From positions 352,001-416,000 of the forward strand of contig JAVLKG010000005.1 in NCBI GenBank assembly GCA_032128875.1: a stretch of 64,000 nucleotides of DNA, written 5' to 3'. Source of the stretch: Candidatus Melainabacteria bacterium 17Bon1m (lineage in GTDB: Bacteria > Cyanobacteriota > Vampirovibrionia > Obscuribacterales > Obscuribacteraceae). This document shows, piece by piece, positions 1 through 9,213 of the stretch; position 1 is the stretch's first letter, and every line of letters begins with the position of its first letter. The notes under the pieces are model-generated. The model was given only the letters and a program-made list of their open reading frames with translations, did not search any database and had not been told where the DNA came from. The translations under genes and the position numbers were made by a program.

Positions 1-51
1 CGCATGCAATGCGCCACTACGCGAACAAGCGACGCATTGCGTCGCCCCTGC
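1..51 (-). repeat. Pair of GTAG-type REP-like palindromes (first truncated by window edge)
   Basis: Minus strand reads GCAGGGGCGACGCAATGCGTCGC (51-29) and GTAGTGGCGCATTGCATGCG (20-1): a G(T/C)AG foot followed by a GC-rich palindrome, directly 3' of the gene ending at 74. Confidence 0.6.
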
Positions 52-73
52 ACGGCTGACCTGTATCTAATTT

Positions 74-1039
74 CTAATGACGATGGCGGCGGTGATGGCG
101 CTGCGGCGGATCTGGTGCGTCTTGCTGACGTACTCCTGCAAAACTGAAGTGATGCAAGTCACCTTTGATTGGTCCTTTGCTGTCACCTTGTCTCCAACCG
201 TTTGCAAGCAAGGCGCGCTTTACGTCAGGGTCTTGCCAGTTGGACACATCCATCGCATTGCCACGAGTGTGATTGGAGAGTGTAGGTTTTCCAGCCGCGA
301 AATCGCGTCCGTTTCTGCTTCTTGAGCGGATTTCGGTTTGTGTATCTACAGTCCTTCCCGCTCCATTTTTGTCAGAGACGATAATTGATTTGCCTTTCGC
401 CGCGAGCTGTTCTTGCGCTCGAGCAAACGCTTGTGCCGCTGGACCTGAGAGCCAATAGTCCTGGGTTTCACCGCTCCTGTTGCGCGTTGATGTCACCAGA
501 CCCTTCTGTCCGATGTATAGCGCGTCGGGTACGCGAGCTAAAATGTTTTGATCGCGGACGGGCTCAAGTAGCCTCTTTGCGTCGAGTCTGTTGAAGTCCA
601 AATTGCCGCTTGGTGAGAGGCGGTCTCTCCCCTGGTTAATGTCAGGAAACGCAGTAGGCGGTAGTGATGCCCTTAGCTGGCGCGGTCCGAGTCCTGTCGT
701 TTGGCGCTCCGGCAGCGGATTGATAGTTATCGTCTTGCCGGCGGCGAGTGCATTCCAGTCGATCAAAGAGCGTCCGCTAGCTTGATCCTGAAGCGCGGGA
801 TACTGCATCCCGGGGCGTTCTGCCGGGCGCGCCGTCAGACCCAGCATCTCATTTAAATTCTGTCGGCTTATATCCGGCATAGACGCTGCTGTGATCTCGT
901 TTTTCGTCCAGGCCGCGCGCGCAATGCTGCGCCAGGCTTCGCTTGCGTCATCTGCAGAGGCGGCGGCGAAATTCCTTTCGGTTGATTGTTCTTGACTCTG
1001 CGCAGCAAATCGCTGTGGGGGTGTTGCGGATTCCGTCAT
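74..1039 (-). CDS. Protein with low-complexity N-terminal leader and C-terminal M15 (VanY/D,D-carboxypeptidase-like) Zn peptidase domain
   Basis: GRTVDTQ...SNHTRGNAMD (SxH-x6-D) and DLHHF distal His motif typical of M15 peptidases. No hydrophobic signal peptide. His/Arg-rich C-terminal tail. Confidence 0.75.
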   Translation of the reverse strand: MTESATPPQRFAAQSQEQSTERNFAAASADDASEAWRSIARAAWTKNEITAASMPDISRQNLNEMLGLTARPAERPGMQYPALQDQASGRSLIDWNALAAGKTITINPLPERQTTGLGPRQLRASLPPTAFPDINQGRDRLSPSGNLDFNRLDAKRLLEPVRDQNILARVPDALYIGQKGLVTSTRNRSGETQDYWLSGPAAQAFARAQEQLAAKGKSIIVSDKNGAGRTVDTQTEIRSRSRNGRDFAAGKPTLSNHTRGNAMDVSNWQDPDVKRALLANGWRQGDSKGPIKGDLHHFSFAGVRQQDAPDPPQRHHRRHRH

Positions 1040-1348
1040 GGCGTTATTTCGAAATTCTTAGGGCGGTAAGTTGGGCTAGAAGGCTATGCGTCTCAATATC
1101 CTGGATGGACCTGATCGTGCCGTGGGCGCGGACTTTTGGTACTCGATTTTCTGGTAAGTGAAACGGAAAAGTTAACGGTAAGGCGGTTTTGAAGAAACGA
1201 ATAGGTGTGCGGCCTGAACTCGAGAGCTCAAGGCCGTTTTTCACGAATCGGATGTACTTATCTGGGGTCGGTGCTGGTCGACTCCAGGACGAAAGATCGT
1301 CCCACCCTAACGGTATGACAGGGAGGGTGACTTTTACGTGAAAAATCT

Positions 1349-2629
1349 TCACGGGACTCTCCTTTCGGATTTAAGGAGTTGGCGTAAATAGACATGGGTC
1401 ATCGCTCCGTGCGCGCCATCGCCCCTGTTGGTGAACTCGCTTCTTTTGAAAACGAAGCCGTGCTGAGCGATTGCGTCTGGGCTAACGAGTCCGGTGCCTC
1501 TGGCGTGGTCTTTATAGATGCTTTGATTACCTAAACCTGCTCGCGCCAACTGTTGCTCTACTCGCCCTTGCAAGCCGGTGCTCTGATTCGCTAAATGTCC
1601 GGTGTAGATCAATTGGAAGTGCTTATTTCCTGAAGCGAGGTCGCGAAGATTGCTCTTTATCCAACCGTCGTAGGCAGTCGGGTTGTACATTGAATCGAGT
1701 GCCGTCACCGAAGTGATTTTGTCCTGAAGTCCATTTTTGTAGAGCTGCGCGATTGAAGGGTTGTAGCCTGCGGAATGCGAGATGATGCCAATGCTTGCCA
1801 AATTGTCGACGTTCTTGCCTGCCAGTTCCGGTGTTTTCTTCATGATTTCGTTGAACATGTTGCGGTAGAAGTTGGGCTGATCAGAACGCCCGCGCGCGGA
1901 GCTGTTGGAGCCCGGGGACGCCTGCCATTCCGGAACGACGAGAATCGTTTGAGGATCTGCCGAGCGCATTTGTTCTCTCAACTCGCTGTAGCTGATAGCT
2001 GCATGTGCATCGGTTCGAAAGCCGTGGTTGTAAACGAGCATGCGCGTGGGTTTTTGCGGATCATAGCCTTGCGGAATGATCACGGATGCATCGACTTTGT
2101 GTCGGCCAGTATTGTTTTGGAGTTGGAATTCGTAGACCTTGCCCAGTCCACCTTCGGGCGCGACTATGCGGCGACCAGCTTCTCCTGCCCTATCCCCCTG
2201 GCCTCTTAGCTCCGGCTGACCGGTTCTACCCCGCTGGCCGGCTCGCTCCATTTGTATGTCCGGCAGTTTCACAATGGCGTTTCTTTGCCCTTCTGCACCG
2301 GTTGGGGAAATTCTTGTTTTGGGAAGAAGTCCACGGTTTTCCAGTTGGGCTTGCACATCGGGAGGCTGTATTCCTTGAAACTGCATTGCAGCAATTGGTG
2401 TGCTCAGACCAAGGCTGTCGCTCAGTGCCTTTGGCACGCTGAAGTCCATTGGTTTGCCGTTAGAGCCCACTGCGTCGCTTTTCGAGGAATCGCTGCTCCA
2501 GATTTTGCTGGCAATCGAGGACCAGGTTTTACTAGTTTCGCAGGACGAAAAATTTGAAACGGCATCCCCTGCCGGTTGCGCCGCAGAGCGTTCTGAAACA
2601 AAATCTGATTGCTGTGATGTTTGTGCCAT
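1349..2629 (-). CDS. Alpha/beta-hydrolase-fold protein with low-complexity N-terminal leader
   Basis: LVYNHGF oxyanion motif, ISHSAG nucleophile elbow, LDS and late GAHGA His. Confidence 0.7.
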   Translation of the reverse strand: MAQTSQQSDFVSERSAAQPAGDAVSNFSSCETSKTWSSIASKIWSSDSSKSDAVGSNGKPMDFSVPKALSDSLGLSTPIAAMQFQGIQPPDVQAQLENRGLLPKTRISPTGAEGQRNAIVKLPDIQMERAGQRGRTGQPELRGQGDRAGEAGRRIVAPEGGLGKVYEFQLQNNTGRHKVDASVIIPQGYDPQKPTRMLVYNHGFRTDAHAAISYSELREQMRSADPQTILVVPEWQASPGSNSSARGRSDQPNFYRNMFNEIMKKTPELAGKNVDNLASIGIISHSAGYNPSIAQLYKNGLQDKITSVTALDSMYNPTAYDGWIKSNLRDLASGNKHFQLIYTGHLANQSTGLQGRVEQQLARAGLGNQSIYKDHARGTGLVSPDAIAQHGFVFKRSEFTNRGDGAHGAMTHVYLRQLLKSERRVP

Positions 2630-2686
2630 AAGAGATTCCGTTAAAGAGCTTGGTGCGTGCGGAATGTGAAAGTGCTGGAAATGTGG

Positions 2687-3985
2687 CTATGTGCGGCCAT
2701 CTGCCGTTATCCTTTTTACTTGTGCGAGAAGTTCTTCTTTACCGTCTTTTCTCAAATTGCGTCTGGCATTGCCCCATGCTCGATCGGCTGGAATGCTTTC
2801 CACTGTTATTTCCATAGCTCTCGGCGTTGTGTCTTTCATGCCGATTGCGTTCGCTGCGCCGAGGGATATGTCCAGGACGCGGTTGTGGACCTTTTCACTA
2901 CCGTCTGGGCGAACTTCTTTCTTGCCCGCAAACGGTCCGTTATCAGTGATTACAACGCGTGTTTCTTTGCCGTTTTCAGGATTTCGCACTTTGAGAACAG
3001 TGCCAAAGGGAAACTCTCGGCTGGCAGCGGTGAGTTCGTTTTTGTTGAACCTTATCCCGCTTGCTGTGCTGCTGTCTTCCCAGTAAACGGAGGTAATGCC
3101 TTTGAACTTATCGCCTTCGCCATATTTGCGTTCGTAGGGACTCTTCCATTCACCTGGCTTTTCTGGCTCTTTCTTTGCAGGTTCCAGCCTTTCTTCCGGT
3201 TTTTTCTTCAGGTCTTCAGCAGATTGCTTTGCTTCTTTGTCTGCGTCGGTCCTGCGTTTGTCAGCCGTTTTGGTGTCTTTGCCACCAGGCTTGGTGCCCT
3301 CGCCAATTGTTTTTTCGTTGTCGGAAAGCCTGTCTAGTAAAGCAACTCCACGATTTTTATAATCAACAGCCTTGCCGTTTGCGTCTTTCTGCGGGGTCAG
3401 AGATCCGTCGGCGTTTTGTATTGCGCGTAGAGCATTCAGTTCGCCGCCATTCTTGCCTGAGACGTAGACACCAAGCATACTCCTGCCTTTGGAGATTTCC
3501 TCTTTCTCGAGCCTGACTTTGTTGATCGCGCCGTCAGCGCTTTGCACTGAAAAACTTGTTACGCCTGCGCTGACGAGTTCGCTAGCCGCTTTCAGTCGGT
3601 CTTGAGGATCAGCTTTTGAATTCATGACTGCCTCAGTGCGTTTTTTGTTGTCTCCTTGAAGAGCTTTAGGGGTGTCAAAACCTTCAGCTCGAGCTTCTGC
3701 TGTGACGCCCGCTCTTGTGTCTGCGCTGTCCTGAACGATGCTCAGGTCTGGAATGGTGCCGCCTTTAACCAGGTCTTGCTCTTTTGAGCCGCCAATTCCG
3801 AGTGCGTCACCGATTTTCTGCCCTGCTGAGGCGACGCACCCTTTGAGGTCGCCATTCCAGCACTGGCTAGCAATGTCAGACCATGTACTTGTTTTGGGCG
3901 GAGAAAAATCGACTGTATCGCTGACGACGGGCGCGGCCGGGCGCTCCGAAGCAGCACCCTGGTGTTGTGCTGTTTCTGCTGTCAT
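2687..3985 (-). CDS. RlpA-like (double-psi beta-barrel) lytic transglycosylase domain protein with N-terminal leader
   Basis: TASGIRFNKNELTAASREFPFGTVLKVRNPENGK...VVITDNGPF...RVLDIS matches the RlpA/DPBB pattern. ATG at 3985 preferred over 4054 because it aligns the leader with the two neighbouring genes. No lipobox or SPOR domain. Confidence 0.8.
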   Translation of the reverse strand: MTAETAQHQGAASERPAAPVVSDTVDFSPPKTSTWSDIASQCWNGDLKGCVASAGQKIGDALGIGGSKEQDLVKGGTIPDLSIVQDSADTRAGVTAEARAEGFDTPKALQGDNKKRTEAVMNSKADPQDRLKAASELVSAGVTSFSVQSADGAINKVRLEKEEISKGRSMLGVYVSGKNGGELNALRAIQNADGSLTPQKDANGKAVDYKNRGVALLDRLSDNEKTIGEGTKPGGKDTKTADKRRTDADKEAKQSAEDLKKKPEERLEPAKKEPEKPGEWKSPYERKYGEGDKFKGITSVYWEDSSTASGIRFNKNELTAASREFPFGTVLKVRNPENGKETRVVITDNGPFAGKKEVRPDGSEKVHNRVLDISLGAANAIGMKDTTPRAMEITVESIPADRAWGNARRNLRKDGKEELLAQVKRITADGRT

Positions 3986-4134
3986 AAATTTTCTGTTGTG
4001 GCTGTAGGGTGGGGGCTCGATATTTGGCGATGTTTCGACGCCGGTGAATCTCACCGCGTATTTGCTTTATTGGAAGGAAAGAACGTTAGTAAATTTCGCA
4101 TCAATAGCTTTCTCAAAAACATATCACTGGTGCG

Positions 4135-4980
4135 TTACCGGATCGTGACGTGCTGCTTGAGTTCGGCGCCGAACATTCTTTCGCGGAGTTCTGGAACGAA
4201 CCTTTGTATGGACAAATCTTCGGTTGCGTTGAAATCTCGCAGTCGATCTTGAATCTGCCTATCGGTGAGAAAGGCGCTGTAATTTTTTAGCGCAGGCAGT
4301 TTCTGCGTTTCAAAAAAATGCTGGTCGCGCGTCCAGTAGTGGTTGATACGGACCTGCTCTACACTGACATACGAAGAGCGGCTGCCGCTCATCGGAATCT
4401 TCTCTTCATTTACCTGTGTGCCGTGTTTTACATATTTTGCAAAATGCGGGTTGGTGACGCGTATTATCAGCTCCGGGCGGGAGATTGTTTTGACATGCAA
4501 ATTGTCCTCGTTGTTTGCTTCGGCGCAACGAGTCAGCATCTCAATCATGAGCTTATCTTCTGGAATTCCTTGGCAGTTTGATGTTCCAAACATTTGCCAA
4601 TTGACTGAGAGTCCGCCGAAATCTTCGTAATCTTCGAGAAGATCAGTAAGTTTCTCTTCTTTAGTCGGATAGAGATACTCATCTACATCTATTAAAGCCA
4701 GCCATTTTGCGGATTCTGCAGTTAGATCGACAATGCGTCTGTAAGCGCTGCATTGAATATTGTTGAAGTCTTCTTGCGATTTGATCTCAATTGGCCAGTG
4801 GTCAAGTTTGACAATGCCTGATTTTATGTATGGTTTGAGAACAGATTCAAAATCGTCTGTGCTCAAATTGTTGAACAAGTAAAAGCGTTCTACTCCAACG
4901 AGCATGTGGAATTCGAGCCATTCTTTCAGGAAGGGAGCCTGATTTTGAATGATGGCGCCAACGACAAGCTGGTTGGGATA
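4135..4980 (-). CDS. Glycosyltransferase family 92-like domain; apparent frameshifted C-terminal half of the upstream GT2 gene
   Basis: The frame continues upstream of ATG 4905 as YPNQLVVGAIIQNQAPFLKEWLEFHMLVGVERFYLFNN, the usual GT92 N-terminus, with no in-frame start codon. DVDE motif present. Confidence 0.75.
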   Translation of the reverse strand, partial: YPNQLVVGAIIQNQAPFLKEWLEFHMLVGVERFYLFNNLSTDDFESVLKPYIKSGIVKLDHWPIEIKSQEDFNNIQCSAYRRIVDLTAESAKWLALIDVDEYLYPTKEEKLTDLLEDYEDFGGLSVNWQMFGTSNCQGIPEDKLMIEMLTRCAEANNEDNLHVKTISRPELIIRVTNPHFAKYVKHGTQVNEEKIPMSGSRSSYVSVEQVRINHYWTRDQHFFETQKLPALKNYSAFLTDRQIQDRLRDFNATEDLSIQRFVPELRERMFGAELKQHVTIR

Positions 4981-6530
4981 ACGCGGTCCACGCGTGTTTT
5001 TTTGCTGCGTGTCTTTTGAGTTGTGCTTACTTGTGTGTTGGTTGCGGTGCTCGCTGTTGCGTTGCTTGTTGCCGCATTTTTTGATGAACTGTTTGATGAA
5101 CTGTTTGATGCGCTGTTCGATGCGCTGTTCGATGCGCTGTTTGATGAGCTGTTTGATGCACCTGTTGTCGAAGGCGCTGGCTGACGCGTCGATTGCTGAC
5201 CTGGCGCGCTTTGGCTACCTTTCGTTCTGCTGGTGTTAGCGCTGGGGCGATTCTTCTTGCCGAAAAGAACTTCCGGGGCGCGTTTTGGTGCAATTTGCTT
5301 TTGCAAAGTTCTGAAGTGTCGCGTCAATTTCCACGATCGACTTTTCAGAACTCGGCGAATTGACTGGCGTAAATATTGGATGTACTCTTCTTGCGCGTCC
5401 AGTGAAAGAGTGAATTCTTCAGTTGCCTTCTCATCGCCTCCGCTGCCGATGAGTTTGTTTATCTCTCTCAGGCTTCGCGTAAGTGTCCATGATGGAGTAT
5501 CCATCACGCGCCGAAGATCCGCTTCCAGTTCGCGAATTCTCAGCTCTCTTCGCAATGCGCCCATAGGAGTGTCCTCTCCATCGCCTGATTGGGCAAGCAC
5601 AAGCATCGTATGAAAGAGTGCTTCTTTGAGACCAAACATATCTTCGCGGCGAAGAAATTGGTCGTTGTGCAATTTCTTTTCGCTCAGCTCGCCAGTGTCG
5701 ATAAGGTTGCTTAGAGCGCAGGAGAGCCAATAAAGAGTTTCGCGGACAAACTTGTGGCGAGACTTGCCGATTTTTTTCAATGAGCTTTCCATCGCGTATG
5801 ACAGATGGACAATGTCGGAGGCAAGCCACAGTTGGGCATTATTGGCAGCCGTCGCACCGCTTGCATGTTTTCGGAAGCTGGCAAGTTCTTCGTTAATGAA
5901 GGCGTAGTCGCCTTTTTGCAAAATCCGAAGCCAGTACTCAATGTCACCGATATGGCGAAATTGCGTGGCGAAGCCGCTGCCTACGGAAGTCTTCCGGAAC
6001 ATCACCGTGCAGGGCTCGCCTATGATATTGCGCAATGGGTCGAGACTGTGGCTGATTATGTCTTCTGCAGCATAGAAGGGCTCCGAGCCGAAAAGGTCTA
6101 AGGCCGTGGCAATGCCTTCGTGAGGAATCGATCTCCCGTTTTCGTCGATTACTTTTCGACGCGAGCTTACTAAAGCAATCTTTGGGTTCTCTTGAAGAAC
6201 TGCGACCTGGCGTTCAATAAGAGTTGGCTCCCAGAGATCGTCCTGCGCGTGAGGCTTGATGTATTCGCCTTTTGCTCGCAGCAGGCATATGTTGTAATTC
6301 TGAAAGAGTCCCAGCCGCTGATCATTTTTTGAATACCGGATGCGGGGGTCATTCTTTGCATATCGCTCAATGATTTCAAACGTGGCGTCTGACGAGCCAT
6401 CATCTGAAATTATGAATTCGAAATTCTGGTAAGTTTGCCCAAGAGCGCTTTCGATTGCCTGAGGCAAAAATTCGGCGCCGTTATAAGTCGGCAAGCATAT
6501 TGAAACTAGGAATTCCACCAGGCTGCCCAT
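4926..6530 (-). CDS. Family 2 glycosyltransferase with coiled-coil SWxLT repeats and Ser/Asn-rich linker
   Basis: VSICLPTYNGAEFL...DDGSSD...AQDD; two SW(T/K)LTR motifs; SNS(A/S) repeat linker. Confidence 0.85.
   Translation of the reverse strand: MGSLVEFLVSICLPTYNGAEFLPQAIESALGQTYQNFEFIISDDGSSDATFEIIERYAKNDPRIRYSKNDQRLGLFQNYNICLLRAKGEYIKPHAQDDLWEPTLIERQVAVLQENPKIALVSSRRKVIDENGRSIPHEGIATALDLFGSEPFYAAEDIISHSLDPLRNIIGEPCTVMFRKTSVGSGFATQFRHIGDIEYWLRILQKGDYAFINEELASFRKHASGATAANNAQLWLASDIVHLSYAMESSLKKIGKSRHKFVRETLYWLSCALSNLIDTGELSEKKLHNDQFLRREDMFGLKEALFHTMLVLAQSGDGEDTPMGALRRELRIRELEADLRRVMDTPSWTLTRSLREINKLIGSGGDEKATEEFTLSLDAQEEYIQYLRQSIRRVLKSRSWKLTRHFRTLQKQIAPKRAPEVLFGKKNRPSANTSRTKGSQSAPGQQSTRQPAPSTTGASNSSSNSASNSASNSASNSSSNSSSKNAATSNATASTATNTQVSTTQKTRSKKTRVDRVIPTSLSLAPSFKIRLPS
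5080..5160. repeat. 12-bp coding tandem repeat (six full units plus a partial), encodes SNS(A/S) repeats
   Basis: Units ctgtt(t/c)gatg(aa/cg/ag/ca) at 5089, 5101, 5113, 5125, 5137, 5149. Confidence 0.9.
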
Positions 6531-6974
6531 TCCATGGTAATCAATCGGACAATTATTACATGCCGATGGGTTGTGAATTCTCAGCTACAACAGTTAGACT
6601 TTCCTCATCGCGGCACGATCCTGCGGCCGGCGAGGCTTGAGCAGTCTATTGAAAAGCGCTAATAGTCACAATTTGAGCGAGCCCAAAACTATTGTCGCCC
6701 AATCCTTGCCGACCTGGCGGACCAGCTGCGTGATCGCATAAATATCGAGTTTGTCGTTGTGGCACCACCGGTAGTGTTTTCTCATGAGTGTTGGCGACAC
6801 TTTCTAGTTGGGTGCCAAAAGAAACACCATATTGGATACGTGGCTAGCATCTGCTCAGTAGAATGTATTTTGGCGTGGCATAATGTGCAAAGCCGTGTGA
6901 CAAAAGGTGGTTGTAAGATTGCTCAGTGACACGGATTGTCAGCACGGGAAGAAGAGGAAGCTTCTTAACCACTT

Positions 6975-7658
6975 ATGGCACGAGTTCTCTTTGTTGAAGA
7001 CGATAAAGACCTTGCAACAGCCGTAGAGATGGCGCTCGAGGCGCAAAATTTTGTCGTTGAAGTTGTGCATGATGGCAAGTCTGCTCTGGACCGGCTGACA
7101 TTCGGGCATTACGACGTGGCGATAGTCGATTGGATGTTGCCGCAAATGAGTGGATACGAAGTCTGCCAGGAATACAGGCGCAATGGCGGGCAAACGCCGA
7201 TTCTTTTCTTGACCGGGCAATCTGATGTAATGCATCGCGTGCAGGCGCTTGATACGGGCGCTGATGACTATCTGTGCAAACCTTTCGCGTATGCCGAATT
7301 GATGTCGCGCGTGCGTGCGCTGCTTCGCCGTTTTCCAAAAATGGAGAATCAGGTGATTAGCCTCGGGCATCTTGAACTTGATGTTCAGCGCTGCCGAGCT
7401 AAAGTCGAAGGCAAGGATGTAGACCTGGCACCCAGCGAATTTGCCTTGTTAGAACTTTTGATGAAACACCAGGGGCGTATTTTTAGTGCCGACGATTTGC
7501 TTGACCGCGTCTTTAAGCTCGATCGAGAGGCAACTGGTGAGGCTGTCCGCCAGCGCATTTTACGTTTGCGGAAGAAAATCGACCTTGTCGGCAAACCGTC
7601 ATTGATCAAAACTGTGAAAGGCCTCGGCTATTGCATGGAAGAAGCGGCTGAAAGTTAG
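6975..7658 (+). CDS. OmpR/PhoB-family response regulator (no adjacent kinase)
   Basis: VEDD, DWMLP, GADDYLCKPF receiver motifs; winged-helix C-terminus TVKGLGY. Confidence 0.95.
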   Translation: MARVLFVEDDKDLATAVEMALEAQNFVVEVVHDGKSALDRLTFGHYDVAIVDWMLPQMSGYEVCQEYRRNGGQTPILFLTGQSDVMHRVQALDTGADDYLCKPFAYAELMSRVRALLRRFPKMENQVISLGHLELDVQRCRAKVEGKDVDLAPSEFALLELLMKHQGRIFSADDLLDRVFKLDREATGEAVRQRILRLRKKIDLVGKPSLIKTVKGLGYCMEEAAES

Positions 7659-8944: not shown

Positions 8945-9213
8945 GTCTGATCTCCAAATGTTCCCAGGCACCCCATTTCAATGAGTGTAGCGTACTTAAT
9001 GAGAATAAGAGGGTTACACGCTCGAAGGATTGGTGAATCCCCGCTTTTAATCAATCTCACGAATTGTCATGTGGTGCGAGACTGGCAACCTGTGGCGCTG
9101 CCGAGGTTTTGTCCTGATATCCGAACGGATACCGGATGTTGCAAGGTCGCAACAACTTTGGCTGTCCGGCTCAATTTGTGGCGAAGGTAACCAGGCTGAG
9201 CTCTGCGCTCGAT

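Follow-up and report, generated by a model that had tools for sequence, protein, structure and literature searches.

A shared, signal-less N-terminal leader on a lineage-restricted family of modular cell wall hydrolases in Obscuribacteraceae

Peptidoglycan hydrolases must cross the cytoplasmic membrane, and Amidase_3, double-psi beta-barrel (DPBB)/RlpA, and M15 domains act on peptidoglycan outside the cytoplasm. N-terminal tags on effectors with unrelated C-terminal enzymes are familiar from the MIX-type motifs of type VI secretion systems (T6SS) and from the N-terminal signals of extracellular contractile injection systems (eCIS) and type III secretion systems (T3SS). Among bacteriocins, pesticin is a wall-lytic example, and the immunity genes of colicin M and pesticin lie convergent to the toxin gene. 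The translocation domain of colicin ColE9 is described as an intrinsically unstructured segment of 83 residues with three linear epitopes, and the substitution W39A in the TolB-binding epitope as one that abolishes TolB binding (PMC8561637). ChiX of Serratia marcescens, a zinc peptidoglycan peptidase of the LAS family, is reported to be periplasmic without a signal peptide and to depend on the holin ChiW (PMC5778951), and a type IV secretion system (T4SS) route for the cultured predator Vampirovibrio is, in the account cited here, only proposed (PMC4451040). Here we analyze three genes for predicted wall-lytic enzymes, and the N-terminal leader common to their products, at the left end of a 64,000-nucleotide stretch of contig JAVLKG010000005.1 (positions 352,001 to 416,000, forward strand; the stretch is called the window and the contig C5 below) from Candidatus Melainabacteria bacterium 17Bon1m (GCA_032128875.1).

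The 17Bon1m genome is a metagenome-assembled genome of the family Obscuribacteraceae (Melainabacteria/Vampirovibrionia), 7.55 Mb in size and 93% complete. The open reading frame (ORF) list and translations place the three genes co-oriented on the minus strand, in the order, along transcription, DPBB protein (P0003), esterase (P0002), and M15 peptidase-like protein (P0001). A preliminary description of the window had noted different catalytic domains behind alignable N termini, and translations and alignment bear this out with the residue numbers exact. The three N termini are polar, disordered leaders of about 70 to 100 residues. Together, the three genes make up one lineage-restricted family of modular cell wall hydrolases without signal peptides, in which a disordered N-terminal module is followed by a linker, an exchangeable lytic domain, and a C-terminal tail of basic character. 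The finding is narrower than first proposed, comprising three genes per genome in essentially one genus.

The leaders carry a set of four or five short motifs, namely, an N-terminal M-T/A-E-S/T, ER, DF(S/T)P, a tryptophan (Trp) helix, and L..x.LG. With numbering from ATG 3985 for the DPBB protein, the Trp motif falls at W35/I38/A39/W43 there and at W36/I39/A40/W44 in both the M15 protein and the esterase. TER in the M15 protein and SER in the other two precede an Ala-rich stretch, and the L..x.LG motif, about 20 to 30 residues after the Trp helix, reads LNEMLGL, LSDSLGL, and IGDALGI in the M15, esterase, and DPBB proteins, respectively. Residues M1, E21, R22, A25, D30, W36, I39, A40, W44, L66, and G67 are invariant in the three-way alignment. 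Searched against 50,660 six-frame ORFs (at least 60 amino acids [aa]) of the 17Bon1m genome, a hidden Markov model (HMM) of the three leaders retrieved only the three genes, with E values of 6.6e-33 to 8.3e-26 and a next-best value of 0.028. In a leave-one-family-out analysis, HMMs built from the orthologous leaders of a single family were ranked over the same 50,660 ORFs; the esterase-only HMM placed the DPBB leader at rank 2 (1.5e-10) and the M15 leader at rank 3 (6.5e-3), and the DPBB-only HMM placed the esterase leader at rank 2 (1.3e-5). On its own, the pattern W..[IVL][AS]...W is present at 43 sites among 6.46 million ORF residues. The specificity of the HMM, the retrieval across families, and the rarity of the bare Trp pattern therefore exclude a chance resemblance.

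The start codons at these motif-bearing N termini hold, since many orthologues (from nine other species) have an in-frame stop 3 to 6 codons upstream of the same Met and therefore cannot hide an upstream signal peptide. For the DPBB gene, the sequence comparison favors ATG 3985 over the GTG at 4054 given in the ORF list. The reported lack of a hydrophobic signal peptide and of a Tat motif was likewise confirmed. The highest 15-residue Kyte-Doolittle window within the first 120 aa reached 0.80 to 0.97 in the three proteins, versus 2.37 to 2.41 in two control proteins with classical signal peptides, and every 19-residue window in the three proteins was at or below 0.73, giving no membrane span. 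By hydropathy and sequence, the N termini have none of the features of Sec, lipoprotein, or Tat signals, with SER or TER instead of RR, then polar residues, and no h-region; Tat export was dropped as a candidate on these grounds. AlphaFold2 (AF2) modeled the P0002 leader with a predicted local distance difference test (pLDDT) score of <50 and short helices at residues 36 to 47, 67 to 72, and 91 to 98, and the P0003 leader, also at pLDDT <50, with helices at residues 35 to 43, 47 to 62, and 69 to 74. The Trp helix is amphipathic (hydrophobic moment of 0.35 to 0.49 at 100 degrees).

Across 22 to 28 leaders, W36 never varies, and A40 and W44 rarely do. The expectation that orthologues would conserve both Trp residues thus stood fully for the first and only in part for the second, which is replaced by C-N in some DPBB orthologues. 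Purifying selection on the leader is intermediate, with pN/pS values (relative only, as synonymous sites are near saturation) of 0.42 to 0.51 for leaders, 0.20 to 0.22 for catalytic domains, and 0.60 to 0.62 for linkers. A Cys pair (Cys-x7-12-Cys) directly follows the Trp helix in DPBB-type and single-gene leaders, and its retention would fit an oxidizing compartment. Some M15-type leaders (L024:11678-11962, L027:2708-2992, and L029:1556-1840) have a His/Cys-rich insertion (e.g., ..HVCSGCDHDH..) between the N terminus and the Trp helix that may bind metal. The leader had no match in Pfam, NCBIfam, PHROG, PDB, or the ESM Atlas, where a query with residues 1 to 100 gave no usable match. A literature search, at the level of search results, returned nothing on the leader or on secretion or signal-less hydrolases in Obscuribacterales/Melainabacteria. 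By these sequence comparisons, the leader is new as a sequence family.

The leader was found in 10 of the 12 other species of the same genus, with the cluster syntenic, and in one species each of two other genera; 13 of the 104 family genomes (17Bon1m included) carry it, in at most three genes per genome. Among 1,835,955,588 representative proteins, a profile of 22 leaders had 9 matches at E<=0.001, all from the same gene family. The preliminary description had predicted the leader on many proteins, a prediction contradicted by these counts. Because the leader tags only this gene family, it is, as far as sequence searches tell, not a general secretion leader.

Within the family, the leader is combined with a variety of domains. 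Fusions include leader-M15-esterase (644 aa, in G002), leader-DPBB-M15 (675 aa, in G005), and, in a metagenomic representative of 816 aa (P0012), leader-Amidase_3-VanY-like-esterase, with an E value of 1.9e-36 for Amidase_3. Other metagenomic proteins have the leader joined straight to a DPBB domain (P0006 and P0011), on a variant M15 domain (P0010), or, with its Trp motif duplicated, ahead of a Cys-peptidase-like domain (P0004) that recurs in a 1,374-aa protein of the 17Bon1m genome (phmmer, 9.2e-88). The VanY matches of P0010 and P0012 are below the cut-off. In three genomes (G001, of the same genus, and G114 and G054), one gene combines the leader, the middle domain, a charged linker, and the M15 domain; in G001, this gene occupies the same chromosomal place as the cluster. 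We infer that the cluster probably arose by tandem duplication and domain swapping of such an ancestral leader/middle-domain/M15 gene. In G004 and G010, both without the leader, a search with the flanking kinase gave only paralogues of 35 to 36% identity, and loss and incomplete assembly are indistinguishable there.

The catalytic domains themselves differ in how closely they match described families. In P0001, the motifs SNHTxGxAxD and DLHH are invariant in eight orthologues, and phmmer links the protein to two own-genome paralogues (5.8e-16 and 8.8e-15), both of which pass Pfam VanY (40.8 and 44.7 bits; cut-off, 25). P0001 itself is below every Pfam and NCBIfam cut-off, including a subthreshold match to Extensin-like_C (15.5 bits; cut-off, 25.4), and the M15 alignment had no match among PDB sequences at E<=1. 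On its motifs and these links to paralogues, P0001 is likely a member of the M15/LAS peptidases, an assignment that stays short of formal because P0001, unlike its paralogues, passes no curated cut-off. P0002 had no match in Pfam, PHROG, NCBIfam, or PDB sequences. In its AF2 model, 248 residues of the esterase domain (160 to 426) have a pLDDT of >=90, and the top Foldseek matches are feruloyl esterase 1gkl_A (E value, 7.9e-8; probability, 1.00) and esterase D. Residues S286 (in HSAG), D312, and H407, invariant in a 40-sequence esterase alignment, likely form the catalytic triad; with the modeled fold, the Ser of a nucleophile elbow, the acid, and the His all in place, P0002 is predicted to be a serine esterase of the alpha/beta-hydrolase fold. 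P0003 is an RlpA-like DPBB protein, with 51.7 bits for Pfam DPBB_1 (PF03330; cut-off, 28.8) and a PDB sequence match to 4avr_A (5.8e-7). VIA-align superposed its barrel on PA4485 (4avr_B; Z of 11.4, root mean square deviation of 1.8 over 91 residues, 35% identity) and on the baseplate hub of cyanophage A-1(L) (8kea_A; Z of 11.1). Classification as RlpA proper was rejected (TIGR00413, 51.1 bits, below the cut-off of 82.15; no hydrophobic N terminus), and canonical DPBB paralogues with hydrophobic N termini are present elsewhere in the genome.

Delivery of the three proteins outside the producer cytoplasm is our proposal from these sequences. Extracytoplasmic action can be argued because Amidase_3, DPBB, and M15 domains act on peptidoglycan, because the esterase homologue P0037 has a classical Sec signal peptide, set straight on the domain and replacing the polar N terminus, and because the DPBB-type and single-gene leaders keep the Cys pair. 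Other distant esterase homologues have long polar N termini of different sequence. Tentatively, and with less than even confidence, we prefer to read the leader as a module for delivery: a partner would recognize its series of linear motifs, and the folded lytic domains would thereby pass through a membrane independently of Sec and Tat. In its most plausible form, such delivery would be export out of the producer along a holin-like or as yet undescribed route, rather than loading into a T3SS or eCIS. The synteny within the genus, the intermediate selection on the leader, its disorder and modular use, the basic tails, and the neighboring MurQ gene also speak for this reading. The earlier idea of a targeting module is upheld to the extent that the leader is real, fixed in position, non-Sec, and borne by different wall-lytic domains, Amidase_3 and the Cys-peptidase-like domain included; the part that gave it wider use is not.

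Several observations count against such a delivery role. Three proteins per genome are few for a dedicated route. The M15-only leader HMM retrieved the other leaders nonsignificantly (esterase fourth; E value, 1.8), for which reason the M15 leader appears to be the most diverged member, with the weakest homology link. Profile searches of the 93%-complete 17Bon1m genome, for which positive controls of PF00771, PF05943, PF04984, and PF03135 were detected, gave 0 matches for FHIPEP (PF00771; T3SS/flagellum), TssC (PF05943; T6SS), the phage/eCIS sheath (PF04984), VirB4 (PF03135; T4SS), and the C39 peptidase (PF03412), so the suggestion that a T3SS, T4SS, T6SS, or eCIS is encoded elsewhere in the genome is not supported. 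Inspection, without a transmembrane predictor, of the ORFs with 60 aa or more between C5:335,000 and window position 9,000 revealed no holin-like candidate in the cluster or next to it; holins elsewhere were not sought. RNA-labeled sequencing runs yielded no proof of cluster transcription. Finally, the kept N terminus could reflect any common need, e.g., regulation or localization, rather than transport.

As to those runs, positions 1 to 7000 of the window lie inside contigs of 72 to 138 kb, i.e., DNA-like, in the RNA-Seq-labeled runs X3 to X5, which contain genomic DNA of 17Bon1m or a near-identical organism and are unusable as expression evidence. A lake metatranscriptome (X20) gave four identical contigs of 151 to 235 nucleotides within the first 4200 bases, where DNA carry-over is possible. 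Two further routes were rejected as candidates. For a double-glycine leader and a peptidase-containing ATP-binding cassette transporter, C39 was not found and the motif is LG followed by L, I, or F, not GG; the idea of a type VII secretion system (W-x-G after a helix) was dropped, with only one weak FtsK_SpoIIIE match (24.8 bits). The genome encodes three secretins, and no candidate chaperone was found in the cluster. An 871-aa protein with TrwB/VirD4-type coupling-protein domains (31 bits, over the cut-off) is encoded at L086:2995-5607 (minus strand, on C4), about 4 kb from the gene for the 1,374-aa hydrolase.

With modest confidence, we put export somewhat ahead of colicin-like import. If import applied, the proteins would be lytic bacteriocins of the colicin/pesticin kind, in which the disordered leader would thread through an outer membrane protein of a related target cell and capture an energy-coupling protein in the periplasm, with receptor binding left to the middle domain and digestion of the target wall to the C-terminal domain. 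We regard this as unlikely, yet as more likely than the other alternatives. The tripartite layout (a disordered, motif-bearing N terminus followed by a folded middle domain and, after a linker, an exchangeable killing domain) would fit a bacteriocin, as would the lack of a signal peptide and the narrow, lineage-specific distribution, and the critical W39 of ColE9 falls within the span of the Trp helix here (residues 35 to 44). The genome has 16 TonB_C matches, 14 of them over the cut-off; on the other hand, TolB_N was not found in it and no TonB box was identified, and the four TonB_C genes inspected had no obvious ExbBD neighbor. The locus, moreover, is vertically inherited with fixed synteny and strongly constrained catalytic domains and is neither patchy nor mobile, no lysis gene was seen among the ORFs of the cluster region, and three tandem enzymes and multienzyme fusions are unusual for bacteriocins.

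The colicin-like alternative also draws on a conserved orphan gene of 126 aa that is convergent to the M15 gene and has the same phyletic pattern. It lies at C5:351475-351855 (plus strand), 146 to 526 bases left of the window start, and has a mean column identity of 77%. Nine of the 12 other species of the genus have it, these being the leader carriers except G008, whose contig ends inside the cluster; among kin and neighbors, a common phyletic pattern is weak evidence of a functional link. The product had no family match in Pfam, PHROG, or NCBIfam (the latter two also gave zero matches for P0001, P0002, and P0004). It has neither a signal peptide nor a membrane span (19-residue Kyte-Doolittle maximum of 0.97) and follows a histidine kinase gene on the same strand, which makes it a poor candidate for a periplasmic immunity protein. 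A co-fold of the full-length M15 protein with the orphan product (ipSAE of 0.01, mark of 0.32) gave no answer either way. A 'DW.SYA.A.AI.L' stretch in the orphan product loosely recalls the Trp helix of the leader.

Less probable again is that the shared N terminus acts within the producer as a regulatory or localization module (a common scaffold, a division or remodeling site, or a pro-region), with release by lysis or an unrelated route. Co-localization is suggested by the presence of one module on three enzymes whose bond specificities are complementary, and the locus is conserved beside MurQ and a pair of CHASE3-type histidine kinase and OmpR-type regulator, similar pairs being found near two other signal-less hydrolase loci. 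Yet a cytoplasmic scaffold cannot reach peptidoglycan, so that a transport step would still be needed; no scaffold candidate was found, and AF2 does not dock the leader on either modeled enzyme (pLDDT <50, hence weak evidence). The paralogous kinase/regulator pairs adjoin three separate loci of signal-less hydrolases (C5:349120-351381, L083:5335-7950, and L085:3933-6480), with a kinase that is CHASE3-type by Pfam in two of them, which suggests dedicated regulation.

We give little credence to a third alternative, in which the enzymes act in the cytoplasm on soluble muropeptides, in peptidoglycan recycling or catabolism with MurQ, so that no export signal is needed and the leader is a minor disordered tail. 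MurQ is indeed a conserved neighbor, no export route was found in the genome, and some M15-clan enzymes (VanX-type dipeptidases) are cytoplasmic. However, DPBB/RlpA-type and Amidase_3 domains act on polymeric peptidoglycan, the esterase homologue P0037 bears a Sec signal peptide, the Cys pair is conserved in many leaders, and the leader motifs are under purifying selection, with W36, A40, and W44 nearly invariant in 22 sequences. The original proposal, in which many effectors share the Trp motif as a signal for chaperone binding or for loading into a T3SS, eCIS, or similar machine, fits disordered, signal-less N termini on lytic enzymes and the presence in the genome of other signal-less hydrolases with different polar N termini, but it is close to refuted and highly improbable, since FHIPEP, TssC, sheath, and VirB4 were not found, only three proteins bear the leader (with 9 matching clusters in 1.84 billion representatives), and those other hydrolases do not match its profile.

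The leader family sits inside a wider, unexplained pattern of signal-less lytic enzymes in Obscuribacteraceae. At least seven further hydrolases of the 17Bon1m genome, encoded outside the window, have long polar N termini without a hydrophobic signal by eye (C8:268058-269353, C16:49443-51179, C17:39411-41153, C10:54900-56105, C15:80292-81683, C14:59089-60378, and C4:441474-445595). They comprise a DPBB protein, two VanY proteins (one with a weak Amidase_2 match), an esterase paralogue, a GH75 chitosanase-like protein, a polyhydroxybutyrate depolymerase-like esterase with an EF-hand, and the 1,374-aa protein, which has a weak glucosaminidase match. The leader profile matches none of the seven. 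A second type of polar N terminus, with repeated 'LDYYRFSGDG' / 'NLYQFTGDN' motifs, occurs in three proteins (C15:80292-81683, C5:575552-576643, and C12:131967-132992), in two of which it precedes the middle domain, and may be another address tag. A search with the loose motif 'LE..G.LP' was discarded (24 matches, mostly unrelated).

The middle domain of P0003 (residues 105 to 227; AF2 pLDDT of 72 to 86, alpha+beta) is specific to the Obscuribacteraceae. Its profile matched 71 of the 96 other genomes of this family, with 1 to 8 copies each. Across ten other families of the class, 204 genomes gave zero matches. Five further paralogues are present in the 17Bon1m genome (L043 to L047), three with the domain in the C-terminal position. 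VIA-align of the P0003 model gave lists filled by the DPBB domain, and an ESM Atlas query with residues 105 to 232 gave no usable match. The C termini also have a common character: 25 of 33 family members have at least four Arg or Lys residues among the last 12, compared with 11.9% of 3,550 background ORFs, where the 33 are kin rather than independent and one is cut by a contig end. We take these tails to resemble the positively charged C-terminal signals of T4SS substrates or the cationic tails of outer membrane-active lysins.

More broadly, it is possible, though doubtful, that the Obscuribacteraceae have an undescribed Sec-independent delivery system, for export or for colicin-like import, that serves a family-specific, signal-less, modular lytic arsenal. 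The Trp-helix leader would then be one of several interchangeable address tags, with the middle domain and the basic tails as further parts of the delivery code. If so, a second order of Melainabacteria might live by bacteriolysis or predation without using the T4SS proposed for Vampirovibrio.

The features of the cluster are listed in Table 1.

Table 1. Features of the three-gene cluster at the left end of the window (positions in window coordinates)
Feature	Position	Strand	Description
Gene 3, M15/LAS-like peptidase P0001, 321 aa	74..1039	-	Leader, conserved 'IDW..L..G....I.P' stretch, VanY-like zinc peptidase domain (likely), Arg/His-rich C-terminal tail
Gene 2, predicted serine esterase P0002, 426 aa	1349..2629	-	Leader, disordered linker, alpha/beta-hydrolase-fold domain
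Gene 1, RlpA-like DPBB protein P0003, 432 aa from ATG 3985	2687..3985	-	Leader, middle domain, Lys/Glu-rich linker, DPBB domain
M15-protein leader, residues 1-70	830..1039	-	MTES.., TER, Trp helix W36-W44, MPDISRQNLNEMLGL; pN/pS 0.45
M15/LAS-like catalytic domain, residues 156-305	125..574	-	Mean orthologue identity 0.80; pN/pS 0.20
Spacer esterase-M15, 309 bp	1040..1348	.	No gene or RNA family identified
Esterase leader, residues 1-76	2402..2629	-	SER, SNF, Trp helix W36-W44, LSDSLGL
Esterase domain, residues 160-426	1352..2152	-	Invariant S286 (in HSAG), D312, H407
DPBB-protein leader, residues 1-104	3674..3985	-	SER, DFSPP, Trp helix W35-W43, Cys42..Cys50 pair, IGDALGI, DLVKGGTIPDL
Middle domain of P0003, residues 105-227	3305..3673	-	Alpha+beta; Obscuribacteraceae-specific
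DPBB domain of P0003, residues 286-400	2786..3130	-	Double-psi beta-barrel
Arg/Lys(/His)-rich C-terminal tails	74-112, 1349-1387, 2687-2725	-	On different catalytic domains; also in relatives

The synteny is fixed in the genus, with DnaG, dihydropyrimidinase, MurQ, a response regulator, glycosyltransferases (in some species), and the DPBB, esterase, and M15 genes in this order, followed on the opposite strand by the 126-aa orphan, a CHASE3-type histidine kinase, and a response regulator. MurQ, the N-acetylmuramic acid 6-phosphate etherase, scores 351 bits against a cut-off of 302. The spacer between the esterase and M15 genes measures about 190 to 360 bp in orthologous clusters. An ORF within it (1044-1352, 102 aa) has no Pfam match and a counterpart in one relative only, an Rfam scan of window positions 1 to 7000 at E<=1 gave zero matches, and a promoter/terminator scan gave no signal exceeding shuffled expectation.

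Beyond the cluster, a family-2 glycosyltransferase with a long, repetitive Ser/Asn-rich C-terminal tail (SNSASNSASNS...) is encoded at window positions 4926-6530 (minus strand); in some species, the regulator and DPBB genes have neither this gene nor a GT92-like one (4135-4905 in the window) between them. About 7 kb from the cluster, C5:341321-344740 (minus strand) encodes an FtsH-like protein of 1,139 aa, in which an M41 peptidase domain is combined with three AAA modules. A pair of hydrophilic paralogues, each about 520 aa long (C5:337766-339325 and C5:339687-341252, plus strand), has neither a Pfam match nor a signal peptide; both carry '..LL.WF.KRYPKP' modules repeated at the C terminus.

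What follows from the leader depends on which reading is correct. The modular family described here, if exported, is a whole set of wall hydrolases that uses no recognizable signal. If the leader serves as a tag for export or import, it represents a new address code, and implies a partner, in poorly known, uncultured, nonphotosynthetic relatives of the cyanobacteria, and it bears on whether bacteriolysis or predation in Melainabacteria extends beyond one cultured predator. If it is merely a regulatory tail, the cluster amounts to a neat example of duplicated genes with shuffled domains and not much else. On the practical side, amidase, peptidase, transglycosylase-like, and esterase modules with cationic tails are available in this family as natural fusions.

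P0001 resembles VanY and other M15 (LAS) peptidases in the invariant SxHxxGxAxD motif and a later His pair and differs from them in falling short of the family cut-offs and in having no PDB sequence match (E<=1). P0003 has the DPBB fold in common with the RlpA-family lytic transglycosylases (PA4485, 4avr), whereas it has no lipoprotein signal and its barrel is preceded by the leader, the middle domain, and a charged linker. ChiX, the LAS-family peptidase of holin-endolysin-derived (type 10) secretion, is signal-less like the M15/LAS-like P0001; in contrast to the situation here, ChiX has no long disordered leader, and inspection of the cluster ORFs made no holin-like gene evident. There is also no PHROG lysis-cassette context at this locus, and only the amidase of P0012 matches endolysin families.

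For the leader, two kinds of systems come closest. The marker motifs of polymorphic effectors are likewise conserved or disordered N-terminal tags on unrelated enzymatic domains; they differ in that their cognate machines were not found here and in that three proteins per genome are tagged, not a large effector set. From colicin-like bacteriocins, the leader differs in having no sequence similarity, no TolB found, and no recognized TonB box, and the cluster differs in being chromosomal and syntenic across the genus, in having no adjacent exported immunity protein or lysis gene seen, and in combining up to three catalytic domains in one polypeptide. Nevertheless, in architecture the leader is like the ColE9-type translocation domains, with about 80 disordered residues, no signal peptide, and short linear motifs, followed by folded domains and a swappable killing domain.

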